Below, in pieces: positions 1 through 10,477 of a stretch of 10,477 bases of DNA. The notes below the pieces were generated by a model that did not search any database, was not told where the DNA came from, and saw nothing but the letters and a program-made list of their open reading frames with translations. The stretch is from a virus (taxonomy: Duplodnaviria; Heunggongvirae; Uroviricota; Caudoviricetes). Each line of letters begins with the position of its first letter. Positions within the stretch are counted from its first letter, which is position 1. A program made the position numbers and the translations under genes. The stretch lies in IMG/VR virus record IMGVR_UViG_2711768074_000015; one strand, given 5' to 3'.

Positions 1-134
1 CGCTGTCGTTCTCAAAATCGGTGGAGCTGCATGACAAAGTCATCGGGCATTATCTGAACATAAAACACTATCAATAAGTTGGAGTCATTACCCAGATATC
101 ATCGACTCTCAAAGGTGCTCTGGATATCAACAGC

Positions 135-1442
135 TTGATCATTGACTACGATAATGAAGATGTCCAAAGTTATTGGGAAGACGTTGTATTACCGAACTTA
201 AATGATAATGGTAATAAAGCTCTCACAAGAGATGAAACAATAGCCTATATTAAAGACAGTAAGCCTTGTAGAAGAATTAAAAGATTAATACATGATGATG
301 CTGTGTTGGAGGAACAAAAGGATAAAAACTTCATTGCAAAAATGATTGCAGAATATGCTGTGTCTAGAAATGCAATTATTTCTAGCAACACATCTGGCAA
401 TGTCATTCGGGGTGATGAAAGCGGAGTAAAATGGATTCAATGTGGTAATATCTTTGTCTCCCTATTTCATAAGGTTCAAGATGATCATGAAAACGATGGA
501 GATAGGATTTGGCAAACTCTCAATGATTCTCTCATTGAATGGAAACCATCTTATTATCAGTTAATAAAATCTGAAATTCAGAATGCAATCGAAGCTGAGG
601 CTTTATCTTTTGTAAATCATTTGGCTAACGATCATTACGGTCAAGCTGCGTGGTTAAATGAGATATTAAAATCAGACTCGCCTGATATTAGATGTAGAAA
701 TATTGACTTTGTATTTGGTAATTTATCAGAAGAGCTTTATCAAAGACTTAAAAATAATAATACGCTGGATGAATTTATCAAAAGTGTTTTTGATAGCTAT
801 TCAAATGAATACGCTAACAGCGGAGTTGCTGCATTGCTCCAATATTGCTCTTCAAAAATGGATCTGCCATCAAATAATGATACTTATCACGAAATGTATC
901 ATGCTTTAAATATGAATTTGTCTTCAAAGAATTTTGAAGATGGTCATATTTCTACTGGCACTATTTTCTTTGATACAGAGTCGAACAAATGGTATTTATG
1001 TGTATCTGCGGCATGTGATTTGGTTCCTACTCAGGGTAACGACCCTCACCATGTAAGATTAAGTCCGCACAGGCTCATTAAAGTTCTGGAGCTTTTTAAC
1101 GCCAGTCAGAGTAAAGCATTGCCATTTGCTGAACATTCGAAATATATATATGTAATGCATAAAAATCAAAGAAAATATCTCTCTATTTTCGAAGGGGATA
1201 AAACGCTTCCTGTTGTTGATTATATGGTGGTGTTGAATCATGGAACAACAGTTGATGGCGAAGAAAAAAATATTATTTCTGCCGTGTTTTTAAGTAATAT
1301 GGATGGCAACGTGCAAAATGTTCCTGTCCGACTCAAACTTAAATCTCAACTGAGAACTGGTTATGCAGAAAGATATCAGGCTATAGCGTCTCAGTATAGC
1401 TCAAGGATTGGTGTGGATTATGTATCAATGATGCTACCATAA
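135..1442 (+). CDS. Hypothetical protein, AT-rich cargo gene, function unknown
   Basis: Uninterrupted 435-codon ORF in a markedly AT-rich block. There is an in-frame stop at 75..77, only a TTG at 135 with no clear Shine-Dalgarno, and the first in-frame ATG is about 70 codons in (near nt 342), so the 5' end is uncertain. I recognise no family signature. There is a weak D-x13-EEK pattern near the C-terminus (VVDYMVVLNHGTTVDGEEK) that could be read as nuclease-like, but this is speculative. Confidence 0.5.
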   Translation: MIIDYDNEDVQSYWEDVVLPNLNDNGNKALTRDETIAYIKDSKPCRRIKRLIHDDAVLEEQKDKNFIAKMIAEYAVSRNAIISSNTSGNVIRGDESGVKWIQCGNIFVSLFHKVQDDHENDGDRIWQTLNDSLIEWKPSYYQLIKSEIQNAIEAEALSFVNHLANDHYGQAAWLNEILKSDSPDIRCRNIDFVFGNLSEELYQRLKNNNTLDEFIKSVFDSYSNEYANSGVAALLQYCSSKMDLPSNNDTYHEMYHALNMNLSSKNFEDGHISTGTIFFDTESNKWYLCVSAACDLVPTQGNDPHHVRLSPHRLIKVLELFNASQSKALPFAEHSKYIYVMHKNQRKYLSIFEGDKTLPVVDYMVVLNHGTTVDGEEKNIISAVFLSNMDGNVQNVPVRLKLKSQLRTGYAERYQAIASQYSSRIGVDYVSMMLP

Positions 1443-1513
1443 TTATTATATTTTAGGCGTGGTGATTTTTTTTCGCCATGCCTATTTTATATTTATCATC
1501 ACAATGATGTTGT

Positions 1514-1930
1514 TTATTTTTGTTTAAGTCTTCTAAGCTTCATGCATTCTAATGAGAATAATAATAGAGTTGTGCTGTATATAAAGCCAGAGTTAGTTAA
1601 TAACTTTAAATTTAATGCTTCAGGATTTTCACTGAGAAAGTGAAAGGCATAAACTAAGTATACAGCTAAAGTAGCCGTTCCAATTGTTGGTCCAATATCG
1701 CCTTGATCATGAGGTTCAAGGTTTACATTGAACTTGAAGATTAGCCATTCAAATCCCCAAGTAAAAAAAACAACTAATATCATGGCTGCGAATAATTTCG
1801 CGATGTTATCTGCTGATGGATTCATCAGAACAGATTGTTTCTGAAAAAATTCACAAAGTGAGAGTCCGAAAAAAATAAAAAAAAGTGGTCTGGAACTAAA
1901 TTTTTCAAAAACTTTGAATAGGGTTTCCAT
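1514..1930 (-). CDS. Small integral membrane protein (3-4 predicted TM helices), function unknown
   Basis: ATG at 1930 with AAGG upstream. The 138-aa product is dominated by hydrophobic stretches (LFFIFFGLSLCEFF, AAMILVVFFTWGFEWLIF, ATLAVYLVYAFHF, FIYSTTLLLFSL). AT-rich like the neighbouring 435-aa gene, and convergent with it. Confidence 0.5.
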   Translation of the reverse strand: METLFKVFEKFSSRPLFFIFFGLSLCEFFQKQSVLMNPSADNIAKLFAAMILVVFFTWGFEWLIFKFNVNLEPHDQGDIGPTIGTATLAVYLVYAFHFLSENPEALNLKLLTNSGFIYSTTLLLFSLECMKLRRLKQK

Positions 1931-1968
1931 TTTCTTTACCTTCAGGATTATATTAGCTATTCTGATAC

Positions 1969-3198
1969 TTAGGCTACCAGAGCATTTGATCTTTGAGCTT
2001 GAACGTAATCACTCCACCATTGCATCAAACTCTGTCGCTCTATCAGATATTCTGCACGATTGTATGCTGCGATAATTTCATCTTTTTTCGAGTGGGCAAG
2101 CGCTGCCTCAAGAACTTCAGCTCTGAATTTACCAGACTCCTCTGCCGCTGTTCGTGCAATAGAACGCATACCGTGAGCTACAAGCTCGCCTCCGAACCCC
2201 ATTCGGATGATAGCTGCGTTGGCTGTTTGTTCATGCATATGATTAAGAGGCGCTTTTATGCTGGGGAAAACCCATTCTCTATGCCCACTTATTGATTTCA
2301 TTAATTCAAGGATGCGCAAAGCTTCTTTACTCAAAGGAACTTTGTGAAGCTTTTTCATTTTCATGAAATCAGCAGGAATGTTCCAAATGCTGTTGGTTGT
2401 ATCAATATCAGACCACCTTGCGCGAACGGCTTCACCCGGACGAACCCATGTCAACAATTGCCATTCAATTAGCATACGTGTTTCCAACCGGATTGACGCA
2501 TTCGTCAAAGATTCCATAAACCTTGGCAATTCGCTTGGGGGAAGGGCAGGCATATTTTGCTTTTTTGGTTTACTGAATCTTTGACCAAGGTTGTCAGCCG
2601 GGTTGAACTCAATAAGTTCTTCAGTAGCTGCCCACCGGAAGATTTCATTCAGACGTGAAATGATACGGCGTAGAGTTTCCAATACGCCTCGTTGCTCAAT
2701 AGGATCAAGGTGTTGTTTTAAGAGCTTAGGTCGGATCTCATTGATAGGGACATTACCCAGACCGGGAAAGACATTTCTCTCTAAGCTGCGCCAGATGTCT
2801 GCTGCATGGTCTTGTGAGATACCTGATGTCTTTACCTTCTCATCTAACCATTTCCGCGCTACGGCTTGGAGAGTGTGCTCAGTAGCACTCTTTAATGCCT
2901 TCGCCTTATCGTTGTTATGGATTTGGGGATCAACACCATTTGCCAGAAAGGAGAGATATTCATCACGTAAGGCTCTGGCTCTTGCAAGGGTAAGGTGAGG
3001 ATATGTCCCAAGGCTCATTTTGGTTCTTTTCTTGCTCACTGGTACTGCATACCTGAAATACCAATTTTTCTTGCCTCCTTTCGCCAAAGGAGCGATTCGT
3101 AGAATCAGACCATCACCGTCAAACAAGTTGATTTCTTTATCGGCTGGCTTGGTGCTTTTGATTTCAGTGTCAGTGAGCTTCTTAGCGATTTTTGCCAT
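1969..3198 (-). CDS. int: Tyrosine recombinase / integrase, phage P4 (CP4-57 IntA-like) family
   Basis: The translation has the P4-type N-terminal arm-binding region (MAKIAKKLTDTEIKSTKP...FDGDGLILRI...WYFRY). The C-terminal catalytic region is HGMRSIARTAAEE ... AHSKKDEIIAAYNRAEYLIERQSLMQWWSDYV, colinear with P4 Int as I remember it (catalytic Tyr in the AYNR-type motif). I chose ATG at 3198 (GAGG 7-12 nt upstream; product starts MAKIAKK) over the ORF-track start at 3240, which has no Shine-Dalgarno. Confidence 0.9.
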   Translation of the reverse strand: MAKIAKKLTDTEIKSTKPADKEINLFDGDGLILRIAPLAKGGKKNWYFRYAVPVSKKRTKMSLGTYPHLTLARARALRDEYLSFLANGVDPQIHNNDKAKALKSATEHTLQAVARKWLDEKVKTSGISQDHAADIWRSLERNVFPGLGNVPINEIRPKLLKQHLDPIEQRGVLETLRRIISRLNEIFRWAATEELIEFNPADNLGQRFSKPKKQNMPALPPSELPRFMESLTNASIRLETRMLIEWQLLTWVRPGEAVRARWSDIDTTNSIWNIPADFMKMKKLHKVPLSKEALRILELMKSISGHREWVFPSIKAPLNHMHEQTANAAIIRMGFGGELVAHGMRSIARTAAEESGKFRAEVLEAALAHSKKDEIIAAYNRAEYLIERQSLMQWWSDYVQAQRSNALVA

Positions 3199-3201
3199 TT
3201 T

Positions 3202-3238
3202 GGGACCCTCGGTTTTTGGACCCTTCTTAGTGGGTCCC
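3202..3238. promoter_or_regulatory. Three copies of a 7-bp GGGACCC-type motif at 15-bp spacing in the leader of the P4-like integrase
   Basis: GGGACCC at 3202..3208, TGGACCC at 3217..3223 and GGGTCCC (the inverse complement) at 3232..3238, immediately upstream of the integrase ATG at 3198. The alternative reading is a repetitive GP(T/K)K peptide if translation started at 3240. Confidence 0.3.
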
Positions 3239-3294
3239 ATTCAGGGTGCCATAACTCGTAGTTCTCAGCAATTCTCACTGGACGACAATAGACG

Positions 3295-3328
3295 TAAAAA
3301 AGCCCGCAGAGCTTGTGCTGTGTGGGCT
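3295..3328 (-). terminator. Terminator-like hairpin followed by a U-run on the minus strand, about 36 nt downstream of the tmRNA 3' end
   Basis: Minus-strand arms GCCCACACAGC / GCTCTGCGGGC (about 9 of 11 pairs, 4-nt loop) followed by TTTTTT (the plus-strand A-run at 3296..3301). The position fits the native terminator of ssrA. Confidence 0.45.
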
Positions 3329-3363
3329 TAGTAGACTTCATTGAACTTCAAACAACTAAAAAG

Positions 3364-3400
3364 TGGTGGAGCTGGCGGGAGTTGAACCCGTATCCGAAAA
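3364..3400 (-). ncRNA. ssrA: 3'-terminal fragment of tmRNA (ssrA), a partial copy acting as an att-site junction, not an intact gene
   Basis: The minus strand reads UUUUCGGAUACGGGUUCAACUCCCGCCAGCUCCACCA. The last 27 nt match the T-arm, acceptor 3' strand and CCA end of E. coli tmRNA as I remember it (...GGACGCGGGUUCAACUCCCGCCAGCUCCACCA). The 3 differences lie at the 5' side and one would break the T-stem. The sequence upstream of the fragment (3401 onward) does not resemble the tmRNA body. Confidence 0.75.
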
Positions 3401-3448
3401 ATTCTTAACCAATTGAATATTAATGATTTTTCTAATTTAAAATACCTC

Positions 3449-3470
3449 ACGTGCATTTTACGTGCATATT
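3449..3470 (+). repeat. Tandem direct repeat ACGTGCATTTT / ACGTGCATATT (11-bp period)
   Basis: Read directly: ACGTGCAT at 3449..3456 and again at 3460..3467, about 50 bp from the att junction core and just downstream of promoter-like TTGAAT / TAAAAT elements (3412..3442). Candidate arm-type integrase sites or an operator. Confidence 0.5.
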
Positions 3471-3656
3471 GTAGTACCTCTAACGTCCTGATTCTGTCCA
3501 ACATTTTGAAGTGTTTAGGCGCCACTGGGGCGGTGATTAGCGCTGTTTTGTGCTGTTCATAGCACTTCAAGACTATTCAATTCAGAGCAATCGTTGAAGA
3601 ATTACCCGTAAGGTAATATCATACTATTTAGGTAACTGCGGTTATCACCATCAAGG

Positions 3657-3691
3657 GCCACTGATGACGCTGTTATCATCAGTGGCTTTTT
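3657..3691 (+). terminator. Rho-independent terminator (11-bp perfect stem, 8-nt loop, T5 tail) on the plus strand
   Basis: GCCACTGATGA (3657..3667), loop CGCTGTTA, TCATCAGTGGC (3676..3686), then TTTTT (3687..3691). No plus-strand ORF of 60 aa or more lies upstream of it in the ORF track, so it would terminate a noncoding transcript or act as an attenuator for the operon starting at 3734. Confidence 0.6.
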
Positions 3692-3733
3692 GTACCTTCA
3701 CTGCACAGCCAGTGAAGTGTTGAGGAGACTAGC

Positions 3734-4075
3734 ATGAGAACAGTAGCGAGAAGATCGATACAGACGATTGAGCGTCGGACTCAACTCGTCAGTTCTTTTG
3801 TTGACTCAAACACAGCAAACGAGTTCTTCGTGAGAAGACTGAGTGATCGTGTCTCCCCGGCACGTCAGCTGTTTATTGTGACATTGAACAATGAGGTTCG
3901 TGACGGTGACGTGATCCCGTTCGCTGAGATCGCCATGAACAAAGAAAAATTGCGCTATGTTGTGAAGCCAGCAGATCAGTATCCTCAGTATGTAAGCAGT
4001 AATCTGCTGAAGAAAATTGAAGCGGCAATTGCTCTATACATGCAGAAGAACTACAGGGAAATTAACTACCATTAA
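3734..4075 (+). CDS. Hypothetical protein (113 aa), first gene of a two-gene cargo operon
   Basis: ATG at 3734 with GAGGAG 6 nt upstream. The next gene follows 11 nt downstream. I recognise no family signature. Confidence 0.6.
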   Translation: MRTVARRSIQTIERRTQLVSSFVDSNTANEFFVRRLSDRVSPARQLFIVTLNNEVRDGDVIPFAEIAMNKEKLRYVVKPADQYPQYVSSNLLKKIEAAIALYMQKNYREINYH

Positions 4076-4086
4076 AAGGTTGCTGA

Positions 4087-4854
4087 ATGGCTCCTGCGTT
4101 AATACCTTCATATAACAAGGACTTGAACATTACGCCATTTGGCGAAAAACGTCTTATTGAGTCATTCTATTTTTTCACTGCCGAGGCTGGCTTACTGAGG
4201 GCTGATGAGTACATTGTCAGTTCTGGTGAGTTTCAGTACTACTTGGATGTGTATCAACTGGGATGTTCCACCGACGACTTTTTTTTAGACTATGGCAGTG
4301 ACCTTCTTGATTCGAAGGTTCCAATGCAGGATCTGGTCAATACCCTCTTGGGTCTTGATATGGTAGACGATAACAAAACGATAAGAATAGGTCGTATACA
4401 GTTCAACGACTTTAATTTTATCGAAGAGAACGGTCAGATGATGACCGGAAAGCAAGTGAAAAGCGCTGTTATCGCACAGGATTTCCAATCAGCAGGTTTG
4501 GCGCGTGAGATCTATAAAATGCTTGCGCGAAAGCATGAGTTTCTCATCTGCGATAACATTCAAAGTATTGCCGGTGGTGCTCTTTGGGCTAGTAGCATCA
4601 TTCGAATTGCCGAGGTACGGATCTACAATTCACGCACGAAGAAATTTATGGACATACTTGGTCCAGGTGCGCGTGGCGTTTCAGGTACTTTGCCATGGAG
4701 TGCGAATGATCTGTCTGTAGATGAGATTGTTCGCTGGGGTCGTGCGTATGATGATGAAAACTGTTGTCGTCACATTGTACATGTTATCTGTAAGGACCGA
4801 CTCATTGACGATCAATTTCATGATTATGTTTCGATAGGTGGCGCGACAGAATAA
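4087..4854 (+). CDS. Hypothetical protein (255 aa), second gene of the cargo operon
   Basis: ATG at 4087 with AAGG upstream, and a terminator immediately after the stop. The segment SAVIAQDFQSAGLAREIYKML loosely resembles the Q/R-x-x-G-x-G/A motif of GNAT acyltransferases, but this is a weak pattern match, not a call. Confidence 0.6.
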   Translation: MAPALIPSYNKDLNITPFGEKRLIESFYFFTAEAGLLRADEYIVSSGEFQYYLDVYQLGCSTDDFFLDYGSDLLDSKVPMQDLVNTLLGLDMVDDNKTIRIGRIQFNDFNFIEENGQMMTGKQVKSAVIAQDFQSAGLAREIYKMLARKHEFLICDNIQSIAGGALWASSIIRIAEVRIYNSRTKKFMDILGPGARGVSGTLPWSANDLSVDEIVRWGRAYDDENCCRHIVHVICKDRLIDDQFHDYVSIGGATE

Positions 4855-4859
4855 CCATC

Positions 4860-4888
4860 AAAAAGACCCGGCATTTGCCGGGTTTTTT
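4860..4888. terminator. Bidirectional intrinsic terminator between the convergent cargo operon and the phage integrase
   Basis: Stem CCCGGC (4867..4872), loop ATTT, GCCGGG (4877..4882), flanked by AAAAAGA upstream and TTTTTT downstream, so it gives a U-tail on both strands. Confidence 0.7.
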
Positions 4889-4895
4889 CTTCAAA

Positions 4896-6074
4896 TCACT
4901 TCTTCATTCCAGATTCCATTGCGGTTTTCCCGTCGTATTCAGCCAGGTATTTACCGTAATTGCGGAACAGCATTTCCGGCCCCTTATGCCCCATCTGCCC
5001 GGCAAGCCAGAAAAGGTTTACACCCTGGCTAATGTGTCTGGTGGCGAATGTGTGGCGCGTCTGGTACGGGTTACGGTAGCGCACACCAGCTTTTTTCAGG
5101 GTCGGCACCCATGCTTTTTTACGGATAGCGTCGGCGTTCGTCCAGGGATCTCCCGTTTTCGGATCGCTGAATATGAACTCACTTTTCATAAAGGTGTATT
5201 GCTTCTGCGCCTGCAGGGCCGCCAGCGCCTCACTGTTCAGCTCCACCTTACGGGTACCGGCTTTTGTCTTGGTGCCTTTAAGTACCCCTACGACACTGGC
5301 CGCCTGTATGTGCGCTGTATTACCTATAAAGTCGATATCGGTCCAACGTAATGCGCATAGCTCAGAGCTGCGTAGCCCTGTATTGAAGGCGAAGCGGAAC
5401 AGATTCTGCCATTCCTGATACTTGCAGTGCTGATATATGGCACTGGTTTCCGCAGGCGCAAACGGATCAACTTCGTAATCGTCGGCGTTCGGTTTACTGT
5501 CGACCACGTGATACCGGCTGGCGCTGACAAGAGTTACCGGGTTAATAGTCAACAGGCCATCAGTTACAGCCTCATCAATGGCGCTGCGCAGAAATGACAG
5601 GTTATTCCTGATTGTTTTCAGCTTAGTTTTTCGGCTGGCTATCCAATTTTTTAGTACCGCAGGCGTCAATTCTGTTACATGTAGTTTATGTAGTTCTGAT
5701 AGTGCTGATAGACATTTTTCGTAACCGCCAATGGTTGACGGCGACAGATTGCGGTTCATGCAAATTTTCAGGTATTCATCAAGATAGGACTTAATATTTT
5801 GGGTTTTCTTTACTACACCGAATAACTCCAGTTTTTTGGAACTGGGGAAATATTTCGCATATTCAAACGTTCCGCTGGCGATCTGATTTTGTATCTCCCC
5901 TAGCAGGCGCTCAGCATATTTAATACCACGTGTATTTGCCTCAAGCCGAGACAGGGGCTCCCTGCAAAGAACCCCTTTATATGTGAAAGTGATAACTAGT
6001 GTTGAAGCAGTTTTATGCTTACGAATAGTTACTCCTCTTGGCAGAGATAATAATCCTTGTTCTTTCTTGCCCAT
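4896..6074 (-). CDS. int: Phage tyrosine integrase (lambdoid type, with N-terminal arm-binding domain)
   Basis: 392 aa. ATG at 6074 with AGAGG upstream. The C-terminus YQTRHTFATRHISQGVNLFWLAGQMGHKGPEMLFRNYGKY has the R-H-x-x-R ... Y catalytic pattern of tyrosine recombinases. The N-terminal block GVTIRKHKTASTLVITFTYKGV is typical of an arm-binding domain. The 5' end overlaps the 3' end of the upstream xis-like gene. Confidence 0.9.
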   Translation of the reverse strand: MGKKEQGLLSLPRGVTIRKHKTASTLVITFTYKGVLCREPLSRLEANTRGIKYAERLLGEIQNQIASGTFEYAKYFPSSKKLELFGVVKKTQNIKSYLDEYLKICMNRNLSPSTIGGYEKCLSALSELHKLHVTELTPAVLKNWIASRKTKLKTIRNNLSFLRSAIDEAVTDGLLTINPVTLVSASRYHVVDSKPNADDYEVDPFAPAETSAIYQHCKYQEWQNLFRFAFNTGLRSSELCALRWTDIDFIGNTAHIQAASVVGVLKGTKTKAGTRKVELNSEALAALQAQKQYTFMKSEFIFSDPKTGDPWTNADAIRKKAWVPTLKKAGVRYRNPYQTRHTFATRHISQGVNLFWLAGQMGHKGPEMLFRNYGKYLAEYDGKTAMESGMKK

Positions 6075-6238
6075 TTTGAAACCTCTATTAAGTCGACCCA
6101 GCGTTCTTTAACTCCGTCGACTTTTAATACATGAACCCCTTCTTTCCATATTCCTCTTTGTATCCGTTTGTTAACGGCATCAACCGTTTCTCCCGCGTCG
6201 CGGCAGTAGGTTGATATAGGCACGCAATCCAGCCCCAT
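6029..6238 (-). CDS. xis: Excisionase-like small DNA-binding protein (Xis/AlpA-type winged helix)
   Basis: 69 aa, immediately upstream of int and overlapping it by 46 nt. GAGGTGA lies 5 nt before the ATG. The sequence ...ETVDAVNKRIQRGIWKEGVHVLKVDGVKERWVDL resembles the lambda Xis core (ETVRRWVRE...PPVKDGREY), recalled from memory. Confidence 0.6.
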   Translation of the reverse strand: MGLDCVPISTYCRDAGETVDAVNKRIQRGIWKEGVHVLKVDGVKERWVDLIEVSKWARKNKDYYLCQEE

Positions 6239-6246
6239 ACATCACC

Positions 6247-6393
6247 TCACATAACACTCAGCCCACGGCAGTGGCACCACACGTCAAACATTCGCTTCAC
6301 AACTTCACGACAGTAGAAGCCGTCAACATCTCGCGTCAGGTTATAGCGATTGCCGTAACGCTGGTGGACCCATTGTTCAAATGCTTTATTCAT
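6247..6393 (-). CDS. Small hypothetical protein (48 aa, Cys-rich), below the ORF-track length cutoff
   Basis: My own translation: MNKAFEQWVHQRYGNRYNLTRDVDGFYCREVVKRMFDVWCHCRGLSVM. ATG at 6393 with AAAGGAAG upstream. The stop lies 8 nt before the xis ATG. It fits the operon packing. Confidence 0.4.
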   Translation of the reverse strand: MNKAFEQWVHQRYGNRYNLTRDVDGFYCREVVKRMFDVWCHCRGLSVM

Positions 6394-6396
6394 TCT

Positions 6397-6639
6397 TTAC
6401 TTCCTTTTTATGGCTCGTAATTTTTTCAGGTGCTTTTCCTGCTCAGTGTCCGCGAGAATTTTGCGGTACTCCTGGTGGTCAATATGTTCGAACAGGCAGT
6501 TTAACTCACCAATGCGTACCCGCCCGGATCGTCCGTCCATCCGTCGAAAGAACACTGAGTGCTCAGTGATGCGAGTAATCACCACGGGGTATCCGGCTCT
6601 GTCCGTGTATATCTGACCGCGTTGAATCAAAGCGAACAT
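6397..6639 (-). CDS. Hypothetical small phage protein (80 aa)
   Basis: The ORF-track frame 6397..6675 starts at a TTG. I prefer the in-frame ATG at 6639, preceded by GGGGA, which also avoids overlapping the upstream 27-codon ORF. Product begins MFALIQRGQIYTDRAGYPVVITRI. Confidence 0.5.
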   Translation of the reverse strand: MFALIQRGQIYTDRAGYPVVITRITEHSVFFRRMDGRSGRVRIGELNCLFEHIDHQEYRKILADTEQEKHLKKLRAIKRK

Positions 6640-6643
6640 GTGG

Positions 6644-6727
6644 TTATCCCCATCGACAAATTGAGAACACAACAAACGCTACTGCGAATACCACCCCCAG
6701 AGTTACGATTGCATCAGGCCAGCTCAT
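6644..6727 (-). CDS. 27-aa hydrophobic single-TM peptide (MSWPDAIVTLGVVFAVAFVVFSICRWG)
   Basis: ATG at 6727 preceded by a textbook AGGAGGTGA at 7-nt spacing. TAA stop at 6644..6646, 4 nt before the next gene's ATG. Not in the ORF track because of its length. Confidence 0.4.
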   Translation of the reverse strand: MSWPDAIVTLGVVFAVAFVVFSICRWG

Positions 6728-6762
6728 TGATTCACCTCCTGCGGCGTCCTGGTATTCGATTT

Positions 6763-7331
6763 TCATTCCGGATGCTCCTGAGCCACATTGAAATCGCCAT
6801 GATCACGACAAGGCATCACAACAAATTCAGGATTGCCATACATTGAGTTGATGATGGAATCAAACTGAATTCTGACCGCTTGCCCGTCACCGGAGGAACG
6901 TAACTGGACGGGAATAAATTTACGCTCACGACCAAACATCTTCTCTGGATAACTCAGGTAACCCGCCTGGATCACCGGGTGTGTACAGAGGTCAAATTTT
7001 TTCGGAATGATGCGTTCCAAATCCGGAAAACAACCGTCCACCAATTTAATGCCGGTAATGGACAGCCGGCGCTGAAACTGGTCGCGATGAACAGGATCGG
7101 CTCTTTACTAAAAATCAGCTCTGTCGTTTCGGCTTTGGCCGGGACGCCACCTTCGAACTGGACAATGATGTTTTTCTTCGTCCGGATGCCGTGAGTCATG
7201 CGCAGTGCTACGAAACCATTGGTTGCCTCAATATGTTTTGGCGTGATGTGAAGACCGTTCAGGTAATAACGAACGTCGTTTTTAGCAGCGCACACCAGAG
7301 CGGCGCGAATAAGTTTTGACTGGATGATCAT
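6763..7331 (-). pseudogene. Beta-sliding-clamp (DnaN) domain II-III-like protein lacking domain I, reading frame interrupted by a frameshift near 7045..7075
   Basis: The two overlapping minus-strand ORFs (6972..7331 and 6763..7044) are colinear with E. coli DnaN as I remember it: AAKNDVRYYLNGLHI...ATNGFVAL vs AHQDVRYYLNGMLF...ATDGHRLA; ILFIATS/ELIFSK vs FIFTSK; then in the second frame KLVDGCFPDLERIIPKKFD vs KLVDGRFPDYRRVLPKNPD and EFVVMPCR vs AYVVMPMRL. The frame switch falls where the plus strand reads GCCGG-TAATGGACA-GCCGGC. The start ATG at 7331 has a GGAGG Shine-Dalgarno and overlaps the upstream stop (ATGA). Confidence 0.55.
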
Positions 7332-8077
7332 GCTTTATCCTCCCATCCGATTACCTGAAAAAGCCCCATCTTCGGGTGATACCAGCGTGTGCCGCGTGGT
7401 TCAGCCTCTGACATCATTTGGTGGAACGCCGCCATAAATGTCTCAAGCTCGACGACAGCCCTGCGAGACAACAGACCGTCCGGAGTCATAAATTCGTGCG
7501 TGTCGGTAGGGATGTGGTAGGCGTTGACCAGATTCCGACACTTGGCGTCACTCATTCCGCTTTTGGCTACCACCTGGCGGTAACCGACATATCCGGTGCG
7601 CATTGTGCCGCGTTTGATGTTCTCCACAGCTTTGGTGACCGTTTCGATCTTCTCTTCAACATGACTCAGGCGCTTCTGCTGGCGAACGGCATCGGCGGCC
7701 ATTGCAGCGATCATCTCCATTTCCGTCAGCGGCGCGTGAGTTCGGAAATAGCTGTTAACCAGTTCGCGCTGAACCTGCCATGCAAGAGCATCGTTAAAAG
7801 GCTTCGTCAACATCAGGTAACCAGACTCGAAAAGAATGATCCCTTTGGCAGTTCGCGCGGCAAAGGCATCAGAAAGTGACTCCGTACGTATTACGTCCGC
7901 AGTCATTTCAAGAAAATCCACCCCTTCGATAAAGTGAGAACGGTTGCGGTTAAACGCAGCACGGGCGGTACCTTCCGGGCGCTGGTGGACGTCATCAATT
8001 ATTGCAAATGTCACAACACGCTGACCGCGATATTCGATTACCGGAAACTGTTTGTTGTTGATGGTTACAATATTCAT
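7328..8077 (-). CDS. KilA-N / ORF6N (Bro-N-like) domain protein, antirepressor-like
   Basis: ATG at 8077 with GGAG 5 nt upstream (the ORF-track start at 8152 is less likely). The N-terminus MNIVTINNKQFPVIEYRGQRVVTFAIIDDVHQRPEGTARAAFNRNRSHFIEGVDFLE has the shape of phage KilA-N/ORF6N DNA-binding domains. This is a family-level call from memory. Confidence 0.6.
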   Translation of the reverse strand: MNIVTINNKQFPVIEYRGQRVVTFAIIDDVHQRPEGTARAAFNRNRSHFIEGVDFLEMTADVIRTESLSDAFAARTAKGIILFESGYLMLTKPFNDALAWQVQRELVNSYFRTHAPLTEMEMIAAMAADAVRQQKRLSHVEEKIETVTKAVENIKRGTMRTGYVGYRQVVAKSGMSDAKCRNLVNAYHIPTDTHEFMTPDGLLSRRAVVELETFMAAFHQMMSEAEPRGTRWYHPKMGLFQVIGWEDKA

Positions 8078-8120
8078 TTTTATCTCCAGACAGCCCGGCG
8101 TGTAATACCGGGCATATGTA

Positions 8121-8948
8121 TTACTTAACCTGAATAAATGGTGTGTTGGCACCGCTGGTCATGTATTGCGGCAGTGTACCGTTCCACTTGTTGATGGCTT
8201 CCAGCTCCATAACACCGGGGTTCTGGCGCAGAGCTTCACCGCGTAAACGAATAGCATCGGCTTCGGCCTGGGCTTTTGTGCGAATCGCATCTGCCTGTCC
8301 GGCAGCTTCCGCGCGCAACATGTTGGCTTCCGCTTCGCGCTGTTTTACTTCCTGCTCGCGTTGCAGGGTTTTCTGGTTCGCCGTGACTTTGGCATTAATG
8401 CTGTCGATAACAGTAGGTGGGTACTCCGGCTTACCCACATATGAGAGGCTCATTACCTGAATACCGATGGGCGTCATTTCTTCCTGAATGTCTTTAAGAG
8501 CTGCATCCAGCAGCTCAGACTTGCCGCCGTCGATAAATTTGTCGGTGGTCATTTTGCTGGCCAGTCGGTTGAGTGCGTCGGCTATCTTCTGGCGCAGGTC
8601 GGTGTCGGTAATGTCGTCCACGCCTTTGCGGTAGGTCTGAAAGACTGTGGTAACTTTGGATGGATCAACTTTGTAGGCCACGCCGATGTGATAGCCGATG
8701 GTTGTACCGTCACTCATCTGGAAACTGAATGGATCATCGTAGGTCTTCATCTGCTTAAAGGTCGGGAAGATGTAAACCTCAGTGTTCCATCCCGTCCAGT
8801 AGCGCCCAACACCGACCACTTCACCGACGCCTTTATCGTCGCCCAGTTTGTTTACTTTGATGCCCACATTACCAGGCTCAACGCGATCGCAACCGACAAG
8901 GCCAATGGTCGGCAGAACAAGGGCTAAAGCAAAAAGTAATTTTTTCAT
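8121..8948 (-). CDS. SPFH / band-7 (prohibitin-like) domain lipoprotein, predicted inner-membrane anchored
   Basis: Signal peptide with lipobox MKKLLFALALVLPTIGLVGC followed by Asp at +2 (the inner-membrane retention rule in E. coli). SPFH-like core, then a C-terminal Ala/Glu/Gln/Arg-rich coiled-coil region (QREQEVKQREAEANMLRAEAAGQADAIRTKAQAEADAIRLRGEALRQNP). The start ATG overlaps the stop of the upstream small TM gene (ATGA). Confidence 0.8.
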   Translation of the reverse strand: MKKLLFALALVLPTIGLVGCDRVEPGNVGIKVNKLGDDKGVGEVVGVGRYWTGWNTEVYIFPTFKQMKTYDDPFSFQMSDGTTIGYHIGVAYKVDPSKVTTVFQTYRKGVDDITDTDLRQKIADALNRLASKMTTDKFIDGGKSELLDAALKDIQEEMTPIGIQVMSLSYVGKPEYPPTVIDSINAKVTANQKTLQREQEVKQREAEANMLRAEAAGQADAIRTKAQAEADAIRLRGEALRQNPGVMELEAINKWNGTLPQYMTSGANTPFIQVK

Positions 8949-9133
8949 CTTTTATCCTTAGAAAAAGAAAGACCCTTATAAATGGCATAAATGCAGGGCG
9001 GGGTCAGACACGCCAGAGCAAAGCCAGAAATCACTGCTACCGTATCCTTCATTGATATGAGGGCCGGAACGATTAATCCGTAAATACATGTGATAATTGC
9101 CAGTGATATAACTATTCTGAAATAAATGTTCAT
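8945..9133 (-). CDS. Small two-TM membrane protein (62 aa), translationally coupled to the SPFH lipoprotein
   Basis: ATG at 9133 with AGGAGG at ideal spacing. Two hydrophobic segments (IVISLAIITCIYGLIVPALI and VISGFALACLTPPCIYAIY). Its TGA overlaps the ATG of the SPFH gene. Confidence 0.6.
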   Translation of the reverse strand: MNIYFRIVISLAIITCIYGLIVPALISMKDTVAVISGFALACLTPPCIYAIYKGLSFSKDKR

Positions 9134-9193
9134 GGTCCTCCTGATGTATTCGGCTTGCCTTATTTAATTGCGTCATGGTTAATTTCGTTTACG

Positions 9194-9586
9194 TCAGAAT
9201 GGTTTTGTTGCCATCAGTTCGTAATATCCGGCGCTCCATGTGTCATATTTTCTGAACCATTTTTCTGTATACTGTTTCCTGGCGATGAGTCTGCGCAGTC
9301 GTCTGATTGTTCGCTGGTGTGCGCGGGTATACTCTGTGGTTGATTCTCCACGTTTCCATATCTCATTCCTGTTGAAGATAAAACGCTTGTCAGGATAGCG
9401 TTGTCGGAATCCTGAACGTTCAAAAGCGCGGGTGGTCATAAAGAATGCCAGGTAACGAATTGCCGTTTTTCGGGTGAGGCATTTTTTTGTTCTTCCGTGG
9501 CGTGTTACAAAAAATAACGGGCCGACGGGTGTATCATGTTTCTGTAATGCCTGGTCAATGGTGCTGGCGGTGCGGTTGTCGATCAT
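9194..9586 (-). CDS. Hypothetical basic protein (130 aa)
   Basis: ATG at 9586 with GGAG upstream. Arg/Lys-rich C-terminal half. No family recognised. Confidence 0.5.
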   Translation of the reverse strand: MIDNRTASTIDQALQKHDTPVGPLFFVTRHGRTKKCLTRKTAIRYLAFFMTTRAFERSGFRQRYPDKRFIFNRNEIWKRGESTTEYTRAHQRTIRRLRRLIARKQYTEKWFRKYDTWSAGYYELMATKPF

Positions 9587-9772
9587 TTCTTTATTTCTCC
9601 CGAATAACGTTCATGACTCATTACTTCCCAGTTCCGGCCGTCGTCTTTCGATAACAGCCGCCAGCGACGGTTAACCTTCAGACTGAGATATCCGGTGCGC
9701 TGTATCCGATGCGGAAATATCCGTCGGCATCGGTACAACAACAGGACCTGCAATGCCTGCCGGTGGATCCGC

Positions 9773-9988
9773 TCAGGAATGCGTGTTGCTGTTAATGCCA
9801 CCGGTTTCCTCCTGAGCAGGTGCTGTTATCTGATACCCCGCTCTTTCTGCCAGCCGTATGAATGTATCCATGCTGGCAATCAGCTCGCCATCGCGGACTT
9901 TGCAGACACCTGTGACTTGGCCATTTTCAATTGTCATAACGATCTGCACTTTTTCGTGCACAACAGATACAGGGGATAAATTAGCCAT
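9773..9988 (-). CDS. Hypothetical small protein (71 aa)
   Basis: ATG at 9988 overlaps the stop of the upstream gene (TGATG), indicating translational coupling. No family recognised. Confidence 0.5.
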   Translation of the reverse strand: MANLSPVSVVHEKVQIVMTIENGQVTGVCKVRDGELIASMDTFIRLAERAGYQITAPAQEETGGINSNTHS

Positions 9989-10347
9989 CAGTTAATTCCT
10001 CCGCTGATATATTTTTCTTTCGCGTAATCAATAATCTCTTGAAAAAGGTTGTCTATAATTAACTTTCCGGTTTCAGTCAGGTATTCAGTATGTTGATTAA
10101 TCCCGATAGCATTCTGGTATGCAGTGTGGATTTCGGTTTCACCCTCCACCCGGCCCAATTCACCACGGGTAATACCTTCGAAGCGTAACAGCAACTGGTT
10201 TATAAACTGTTCAGTTATTTCTATGGTCGTAATGTTCCCATCAGGAAGGTCAACAATAAGCAGATTACCACCTGTTTTACGTTTTATTCGATGGAGTGCC
10301 GCAACAGCTATACGGCGACGATATGTATTAATGGGTTCATGTGTCAT
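9988..10347 (-). CDS. Hypothetical protein (119 aa)
   Basis: ATG at 10347. The ORF fills the gap to the next gene with a coupled stop/start. No family recognised. Confidence 0.5.
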   Translation of the reverse strand: MTHEPINTYRRRIAVAALHRIKRKTGGNLLIVDLPDGNITTIEITEQFINQLLLRFEGITRGELGRVEGETEIHTAYQNAIGINQHTEYLTETGKLIIDNLFQEIIDYAKEKYISGGIN

Positions 10348-10477
10348 TTGTTATTTCCCGTATGCTTTCCTGAGAAACGTAAGCGTGCAGCAAGAACCGT
10401 ATTGACGGGGATGTGTTATTCAGTCGGCAGTGCTACGCGCCAGGGGAGCAGTTCGCCGACCCGGTTTATCGGCCAGT

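Follow-up and report, generated by a model that had tools for sequence, protein, structure and literature searches.

Does the AT-rich gene pair that lies beside a P4-type integrase in the viral record IMGVR_UViG_2711768074_000015 (Caudoviricetes) encode an uncharacterised defense or exclusion system? The window, that is the whole stretch of 10,477 nucleotides (nt) that was analysed, had been the subject of a sequence-only reading, which put forward a 435-amino acid (aa) protein and a small polytopic membrane protein encoded at positions 135-1930 as candidate anti-phage cargo of the kind that P4-like satellites are reported to carry. Our analyses suggest a different answer. Positions 93-1930 are very probably the decayed end of a small genomic island that was integrated at ssrA by a P4/CP4-57-type integrase, and the large open reading frame (ORF) is the remnant of a response regulator-like (RR-like) gene whose 5' part is missing at a junction with the insertion sequence (IS) IS1. 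Two features of the window define this remnant:

1-92, plus strand: right end of IS1, comprising the last 24 insB codons, the stop codon at 75-77, and then the terminal inverted repeat (...GGAGTCATTACC).
93-1442, plus strand: 3' fragment (codons 134-582 plus stop) of a Response_reg_2-family RR-like gene, a pseudogene.

Window positions 1-92 (...CATAAAACACTATCAATAAGTTGGAGTCATTACC) comprise what we take to be the end of insB and the right inverted repeat of IS1. A query with these bases returned ~72,000 matching places across 5,079 Escherichia coli genomes, which fits an IS sequence, and the annotation under one such match, in strain 4848, reads 'IS1-like element IS1A family transposase'. Base 93 is the exact start of homology to an uninterrupted locus (560 E. 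coli genomes). In E. coli W (locus L001), the intact gene comprises 582 codons and its product (WP_000214990.1; P0001) is annotated 'response regulator receiver domain'. Translation of the window from base 93 yields a sequence that is identical at 446 of 449 positions to residues 134-582 of this protein, and DNA identity to E. coli W is 99.9% both for the fragment (93-1442; L001 14001-15350) and for the longer span 93-3399 (L001 14001-17307). The 435-codon ORF (135-1442, plus strand), which had been taken for a complete gene, is therefore a mechanical sub-ORF of a 5'-truncated pseudogene. Its TTG start without a Shine-Dalgarno sequence, previously flagged as atypical, is an artefact: the frame is open back to base 78, directly behind the stop at 75-77, homology starts at the IS1 junction, and the TTG is merely the first start-like codon past that junction. 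Promoter-like matches near the fragment did not exceed shuffled expectation (8 found versus 9.4 expected). Collectively, these comparisons show the 435-aa ORF to be a predicted promoterless and start-less gene fragment, an ordinary pseudogene.

The window differs from E. coli W at just three of the 3,307 aligned bases (93-3399), and the RR-like fragment carries three residue changes relative to the E. coli W protein (I>T, D>E, and A>T). All three base differences appear to be non-synonymous and to lie inside the pseudogene, which suggests relaxed constraint on the fragment, with counts that are far too small for significance. The insB stop (75-77) is also in frame with the fragment, such that a single stop divides the transposase frame from the 449-codon remnant. 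This shared frame is probably a coincidence, with a one-in-three chance of occurring; read-through or mutation of the insB stop would yield a fusion protein.

What was lost from the gene can be read from its intact allele. WP_000214990.1 matches Pfam family PF19192 (Response_reg_2) across residues 19-175 (E value 3.6e-31), whereas the fragment alone matches 0 Pfam families. The earlier remark that neither product has a recognisable signature thus holds for the fragment and for the 138-aa membrane protein and fails for the intact protein. Residues D26, D27, D93, and T124 are invariant in the family alignment, and all are encoded upstream of codon 134. In a predicted model, D26/D27, D93, and T124 lie at the ends of strands beta1, beta3, and beta4, respectively, and these sites are predicted to be the receiver acidic pair, the phospho-acceptor Asp93, and the conserved Thr124. 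The receiver residues of the Response_reg_2 family have likewise been described (PMC8011034). An invariant lysine, K260, comes after strand 253-259 and is inferred to be the receiver beta5 Lys, shifted by an inserted helical segment, in which case the IS1 insertion would divide the receiver fold itself. The fragment in the window therefore lacks the phosphorylation-site residues of the receiver and keeps the receiver end together with the whole ~430-aa C-terminal module.

A profile of the C-terminal module, searched against 1.84 billion representatives, matched 659 clusters at 50% identity (E <= 1e-3). Nearly all of these clusters comprise proteins of 560-680 aa in which the match starts at residue ~150-250, and this offset indicates that the module essentially always follows a receiver-sized N-terminus. 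The module has no Pfam match, Pfam scans revealed no DNA-binding domain of the helix-turn-helix or any other type in the fragment or the intact protein, and sequence searches of the PDB with full-length and C-terminal profiles returned no relative. A predicted model of the window ORF (predicted local distance difference test score, pLDDT, of 85.1) divides into a long helical region, a small sheet with invariant W, N, F, and K residues, and a beta-rich final ~170 residues with invariant TGT, CxxxCDxxP, R, QxRxxY, and RxGxD motifs. The window keeps every listed invariant residue of the module.

The genomic setting of the fragment is defined by three further features, two of which belong to the island and one to the adjoining prophage:

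1969-3198, minus strand: P4/CP4-57-type tyrosine integrase of the ssrA island, with Arm-DNA-bind_3, Phage_int_M, and Phage_integrase domains (Pfam).
3364-3399, minus strand: final 36 nt of ssrA (transfer-messenger RNA, tmRNA), the attachment-site copy that bounds the island, identified by alignment to L001.
4896-6074: prophage integrase of the Arm-DNA-bind_2 type.

Several elements of the sequence-only reading were borne out here. The sharp drop in base composition is real: G+C content is 34.9% for 93-1442 and 32.1% for 1514-1930 (0.28 and 0.27, respectively, at third codon positions), versus 45% for the integrase and 43-49% for the prophage. The AT-rich block was, as suggested, acquired separately, as horizontally acquired cargo of an integrase-borne island, and the domain content of the neighbouring integrase agrees with its assignment to the P4 type. 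The integrase (409 aa from its RefSeq start; the mechanical ORF reaches 3240 and encodes 423 aa) maps to L001 15877-17106, where an 'integrase domain-containing protein' lies beside ssrA (L001 17272-17634), the gene at which islands of the CP4-57 type likewise integrate. ARAGORN and Rfam identified no tmRNA or Rfam match in the window because just 36 nt of ssrA remain. A lambdoid prophage (3400-10477) is inserted in tandem past this remnant; E. coli O103:H2 PV16-126 shares this island-prophage junction, and a Serratia contig (L017) has a comparable tandem.

The satellite part of the proposal did not survive. The E. coli island contains the integrase gene, the 138-aa gene, the RR-like gene, a truncated histidine kinase-like (HK-like) gene, and IS3, and nothing else. 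Functions of the psu, delta, sid, or alpha type were found neither in the E. coli loci nor, within the DNA that was fetched and compared with PHROGs and Pfam, in the fuller islands of relatives. By its gene content, the island is not a P4-like satellite, and the integrase family is all that the two have in common. An island without P4-like context, as found here, is an outcome that the sequence-only reading had set beforehand as counting against its own proposal.

Directly upstream of the RR-like gene in E. coli W is a gene whose 572-aa product, annotated 'ATP-binding protein', contains HEF_HK (PF19191) and HATPase_c domains; IS3 precedes this gene. The 572-aa protein aligns to residues 418-988 of a 988-aa Salmonella protein (73% identity), and its frame continues upstream as far as the IS3 end. 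A blastn query comprising a methylase gene and the kinase N-terminus from Erwinia was compared with 5,426 complete E. coli genomes. All 773 matching genomes match solely from query position ~2385 onward, and the part that encodes the methylase and kinase N-terminus is covered in none of the 5,426. These observations suggest that the methylase, along with the first ~370-415 kinase codons (the MORC-like head), was lost in E. coli through a single ancestral event associated with IS3. The lack of coverage together with the IS3-cut kinase indicates that the locus was already a remnant before IS1 arrived. The IS1 in the window would be a second and recent hit, after codon 133 of the RR-like gene. 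In all likelihood, the fragment is silent, and the locus has ceased to function as a system.

Other lesions were detected in the same island. In other E. coli lineages, one RR-like form (P0008, representing 1,605 sequences) extends no further than residue 453, and strain 4848 has an IS1 inside its 138-aa gene (L002 13640-14337). The island is evidently an IS target under repeated decay, with what appear to be independent lesions across E. coli lineages. A 5.6-kb contig (L018; DAIPZW010000118.1) from a metagenome-assembled genome labelled 'Bacteroidales bacterium' is 99% identical to the E. coli island and carries the truncated kinase gene, the RR-like gene, the 138-aa gene, and the integrase gene; it is almost certainly E. 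coli contamination of that assembly.

Intact relatives of the locus comprise a triad of genes that encode a C5 DNA methylase (PF00145), a kinase-like protein of 980-1002 aa with an N-terminal HATPase_c_3 domain and a C-terminal HEF_HK/HATPase_c region, and an RR-like protein of ~585 aa. The ~1000-aa kinase-like protein is a soluble hybrid of a MORC-like GHKL ATPase and a histidine-kinase core, the latter comprising a HEF_HK dimerization and histidine phosphotransfer (DHp) domain and HATPase_c. Eight independent loci carry the triad according to their gene tables. Two of them are Salmonella contexts, three come from Erwinia, Serratia, and Acinetobacter, two from further assemblies, and one from an enterobacterium that also has this ssrA island. 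The triad is likewise intact in Citrobacter and many other bacteria. We then drew 46 loci from the GTDB species representatives and searched the ORFs of these loci with hidden Markov models of the triad methylases and kinases; six loci had too little upstream sequence to assess, leaving 40. At every one of these 40 loci, a ~1000-aa kinase-like gene lies immediately upstream of the RR-like gene and a C5 methylase gene lies either directly upstream of the kinase or directly downstream of the RR-like gene (40/40 in both cases). The loci span Gamma-, Alpha-, and Betaproteobacteria, Planctomycetota, Myxococcota, and others. The N-terminus of the full-length kinase matches the head of the BbrUII/HgiDII restriction enzymes (NCBIfam; E value 2.8e-13) and the PADLOC REase_II model (E value 7e-10). 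In Salmonella, Erwinia, Serratia, and another enterobacterium, the module has a G+C content of ~34% in flanking host DNA of 38-54%. This constancy across hosts suggests that the low G+C content belongs to the mobile module and supports its horizontal spread.

The family is already known and annotated in databases, with the idea of a link to restriction-modification (R-M) dating to 2021 and the flag for defense to 2026. PF19192 and PF19191 were defined by Bellieny-Rabelo, Pretorius, and Moleleki (2021; PMC8011034), who reported linkage of HK-like and RR-like genes at 91.6% in 644 regions, found C5 methylases, Vsr, and further R-M domains to be enriched nearby, derived the kinase from paraMORC ATPases, and proposed the regulatory link to R-M computationally, without experiments. 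The GHKL head fits the paraMORC-R-M theme of Iyer, Abhiman, and Aravind (2008; PMC2292703). In the DefensePredictor study (DeWeirdt, Mahoney, and Laub, 2026; PMC13092281), WP_000214990.1 is listed as a 'Predicted novel defense gene' with a log-odds of 12.05, and the truncated WP_000577254.1 is listed likewise with a log-odds of 6.64 (Table S5). The earlier suggestion of a defense function thus retains some force for the parent family, through its methylase linkage and the DefensePredictor score of 12.05. It fails in its choice of partners, which are the HK-like gene and the methylase rather than the membrane protein.

The gene for that membrane protein and a hairpin lie between the fragment and the integrase gene:

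1454-1484, plus strand: terminator-like G+C hairpin and T run, a consensus match only.
1514-1930, minus strand: intact gene for a hydrophobic protein of 138 aa (WP_000448925.1 family), from the ORF list and hydrophobicity.

The hairpin (12-pair stem with 6 G-C pairs) begins 12 nt past the RR-like stop, between the RR-like gene and the 138-aa gene, which are convergent. The 138-aa protein has about four hydrophobic stretches, of which residues ~44-66 alone pass a strict Kyte-Doolittle cut, so that its description as polytopic is supported in the number of hydrophobic segments and falls short by the stricter measure. It matched no Pfam, NCBIfam, or PADLOC family, the RR-like fragment likewise had no informative NCBIfam match, and PHROG matches of the fragment and of the 138-aa protein were only to unannotated families from prophage-adjacent copies. 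Homologs are confined to Enterobacterales and are 60-90% identical; the Erwinia homolog is 81% identical and occupies the same convergent position, and a homolog abuts the RR-like gene in Salmonella and Serratia. Among the GTDB loci, the gene is present in all six (all Enterobacterales) whose RR-like gene is at least 71% identical to that of E. coli and in none of the 40 others, and it is missing from an 87%-identical ssrA island (L012). This distribution suggests that the 138-aa gene is a clade-specific companion and not a core component of the module. We also considered whether it is part of the integrase module; this was rejected, given that in one Salmonella context the gene stays beside the RR-like gene without a P4-type integrase.

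How might the ancestral system have worked? In the scheme that we propose, the methylase would mark self DNA, and the MORC-like/kinase hybrid would sense a DNA or nucleotide cue and then autophosphorylate. Phosphotransfer to the receiver aspartate (D93) would unleash the C-terminal module as an effector, possibly a toxin-like domain with a MazF/CcdB-type barrel. In the window, the IS1 insertion would have severed the phospho-acceptor half of the receiver (D26/D27, D93, and T124) from the remaining protein. We put forward tentatively, at something under an even chance, that the triad is a methylation-linked conflict system in which the hybrid kinase phosphorylates D93 to release the C-terminal effector. 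That it would further represent a new kind of methylation-linked immune system, in which a new toxin-like effector is licensed by a phosphorelay and not by a nuclease that recognises DNA directly, is a conjecture for which the chance is closer to one in three. The C-terminal module, the candidate effector, is undescribed in the literature.

Comparison with described systems places the locus within the Response_reg_2/HEF_HK pair. The intact allele matches PF19192, the E. coli neighbor matches PF19191 and HATPase_c, and full-length relatives share the gene order, the linkage to a C5 methylase, and a soluble kinase with an N-terminal HATPase_c_3 domain. In contrast to that pair, the window copy is without residues 1-133 and hence has no phosphorylation-site residue, the E. 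coli kinase is without its N-terminal ~40%, and the methylase is absent. Neither the ~430-aa C-terminal module nor the 138-aa companion gene was characterised in the study that defined the pair (PMC8011034).

The Detocs system (DtcA/DtcB/DtcC; Rousset et al., 2023, bioRxiv 10.1101/2023.01.24.525353) is a validated precedent of immunity in which a kinase acts through a receiver-effector. It resembles the triad in combining a kinase with a receiver fused to a non-regulatory C-terminal module and in being mobile and island-borne. However, no stand-alone receiver (DtcB) gene or purine nucleoside phosphorylase (PNP) domain was found in the gene tables of the eight loci or in the Pfam scans. The kinase carries a MORC-like GHKL head and not the tetratricopeptide repeats (TPRs) of DtcA, a C5 methylase neighbor is obligatory, the C-terminal module is not a PNP, endonuclease, or hydrolase, and a tested paralogue pair was negative for phage defense. 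Screening with PADLOC-DB v2, a release in which the presence of Detocs models was not verified, gave no meaningful match. The fragment and the 138-aa protein returned 0 matches in this check, which the sequence-only reading had proposed; the intact proteins matched below threshold (E values of 0.003-0.03), and full-length relatives matched generic methylase and GHKL head models and nothing else.

The paraMORC and BbrUII/HgiDII enzymes (PMC2292703; NF050001) share with the triad the HATPase_c_3 start of the full-length kinase and an operonic cytosine methylase. The match to BbrUII/HgiDII, however, covers only ~125 N-terminal residues, and a kinase core of DHp and catalytic and ATP-binding (CA) domains replaces the C-terminal nuclease; in E. 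coli, this head is missing altogether, from a region that lies outside the window. In a comparison with the MazF/Kid/CcdB toxin fold, sequence identity is 5-12%, the catalytic Arg and Thr of MazF are not evidently conserved, and the domain belongs to a larger module of 430 aa whose extensive helical part has no match. Alignment by hhalign of the C-terminal profile with MazF, Kid, EndoA, and CcdB gave no signal (probability of 0.06%). Three other systems were considered. Shedu-type GHKL nucleases (VcSduA; PMC12137116) and the conflict systems of Kaur et al. (2020) were not relevant, and the HATPase/REC system in Fig. 6F of the DefensePredictor study is, as far as its legend indicates, most likely a TPR/PNP Detocs-like system of another family.

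Several observations weigh against the account given here, both of the window locus and of its parent. The most direct concerns a full-length E. coli paralogue pair, WP_000236931.1 (989 aa) and WP_000886597.1 (607 aa), which was cloned in MG1655 as construct 2CM2, with a frameshifted variant as construct 2CMP; both are recorded as defensive = FALSE (PMC13092281, Table S6). The cloned span comprises those two genes alone, so the methylase was not included in either construct. Pfam and PDB searches of the C-terminal module identified neither a nuclease nor any other type of catalytic domain. With respect to the window, the frame of the fragment is fully open across 449 codons with three amino-acid changes, which implies that decay is very recent and that, on sequence alone, expression is possible; read-out transcription from IS1 into the fragment may provide a route. 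Neither the 5,426 complete E. coli genomes nor the GTDB species representatives contain the exact IS1 junction. The window does not extend to the kinase remnant or to the missing half of the gene, so that a simple IS1 insertion, as against an IS1-mediated deletion, is an assumption here; a simple insertion would leave a 9-bp (or 8-bp) target duplication, CAGATATCA, beyond the IS1 body.

Among the alternatives, the one that survives best, although improbable, takes the parent pair as a cytoplasmic two-component regulator that tunes a neighboring R-M system, with the C-terminal module as a regulatory or DNA-binding output and the window copy dead. This was the published proposal (PMC8011034), and it is consistent with the canonical receiver and H-box features, with a C-terminal module in which no catalytic domain is recognised, and with the failure of the HK-like/RR-like pair, minus the methylase, to provide phage defense. 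However, the methylase is the only R-M-type gene that is constantly adjacent at the 40 loci, as assessed with methylase and HK-like profiles only, and at the eight annotated loci no gene beside the triad is listed with a restriction-enzyme domain, which suggests that there is usually no separate system visible to regulate. The kinase N-terminus instead itself resembles the GHKL head of the BbrUII/HgiDII restriction enzymes (E value 2.8e-13), the module is mobile and AT-rich in every host, and a regulator with a DNA-binding output is not favored by a protein without a match to any DNA-binding Pfam domain, helix-turn-helix or other. The original proposal, of a functional two-gene defense or exclusion module (the 435-aa ORF with the 138-aa membrane protein) carried as variable cargo by a P4-like satellite, is very unlikely: both frames are open, the 138-aa gene is well conserved beside RR-like genes in an Enterobacterales subclade, DefensePredictor gives the intact large protein a high score, and the receiver-less effector of Detocs is active alone (bioRxiv 10.1101/2023.01.24.525353), such that a truncated effector might be as well, but the large ORF starts at an IS1 junction inside a gene with no credible start, the pairing seen across phyla is with the HK-like gene and methylase (the membrane protein is absent from 40 of the 46 loci), no island version carries P4 genes, PADLOC gave no meaningful match, and a constitutively active toxic fragment would be counter-selected.

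The prophage that adjoins the island contains genes that are of separate interest. Between the ssrA site and the prophage integrase, a typical moron position, lie two plus-strand genes (3734-4075, 113 aa; 4087-4854, 255 aa) whose products match only PHROGs of unknown function (phrog_2594 and phrog_3307) and have no Pfam, NCBIfam, or PADLOC match; as intact unknown cargo, these two genes are a stronger candidate than the RR-like fragment locus. In the early-left region of the prophage, a minus-strand gene (8121-8948) encodes a 275-aa lipoprotein with an SPFH/Band_7 domain (Pfam E value 7.9e-31; phrog_200), and a 62-aa hydrophobic ORF upstream of it (8945-9133, minus strand) overlaps it by 4 nt; the two are possibly a pair of membrane-associated morons. 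The minus-strand ORF at 7328-8152, with a mechanical GTG start, encodes an anti-repressor-like protein of 274 aa that carries an ORF6N domain (phrog_1726).

The window locus matters mainly as a correction. An apparent orphan protein with an odd start is a fragment generated by an IS, and what had been read as defense cargo would be the last stage of a stepwise decay of the island, by IS3 and then by IS1. The parent module, by comparison, is conserved across Proteobacteria, Planctomycetota, and Myxococcota, and its C-terminal module occurs in at least 659 clusters with no recognised fold. The material in which to study a putative phosphorelay-gated, R-M-like system is the intact version from Serratia, Citrobacter, or Salmonella and not the window locus. 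The sole published test lacked the methylase, and the intact module elsewhere stays a reasonable experimental target. If the proposed scheme is true, the window would hold a natural 'receiver-less effector' fossil of a phosphorelay-licensed immune system.

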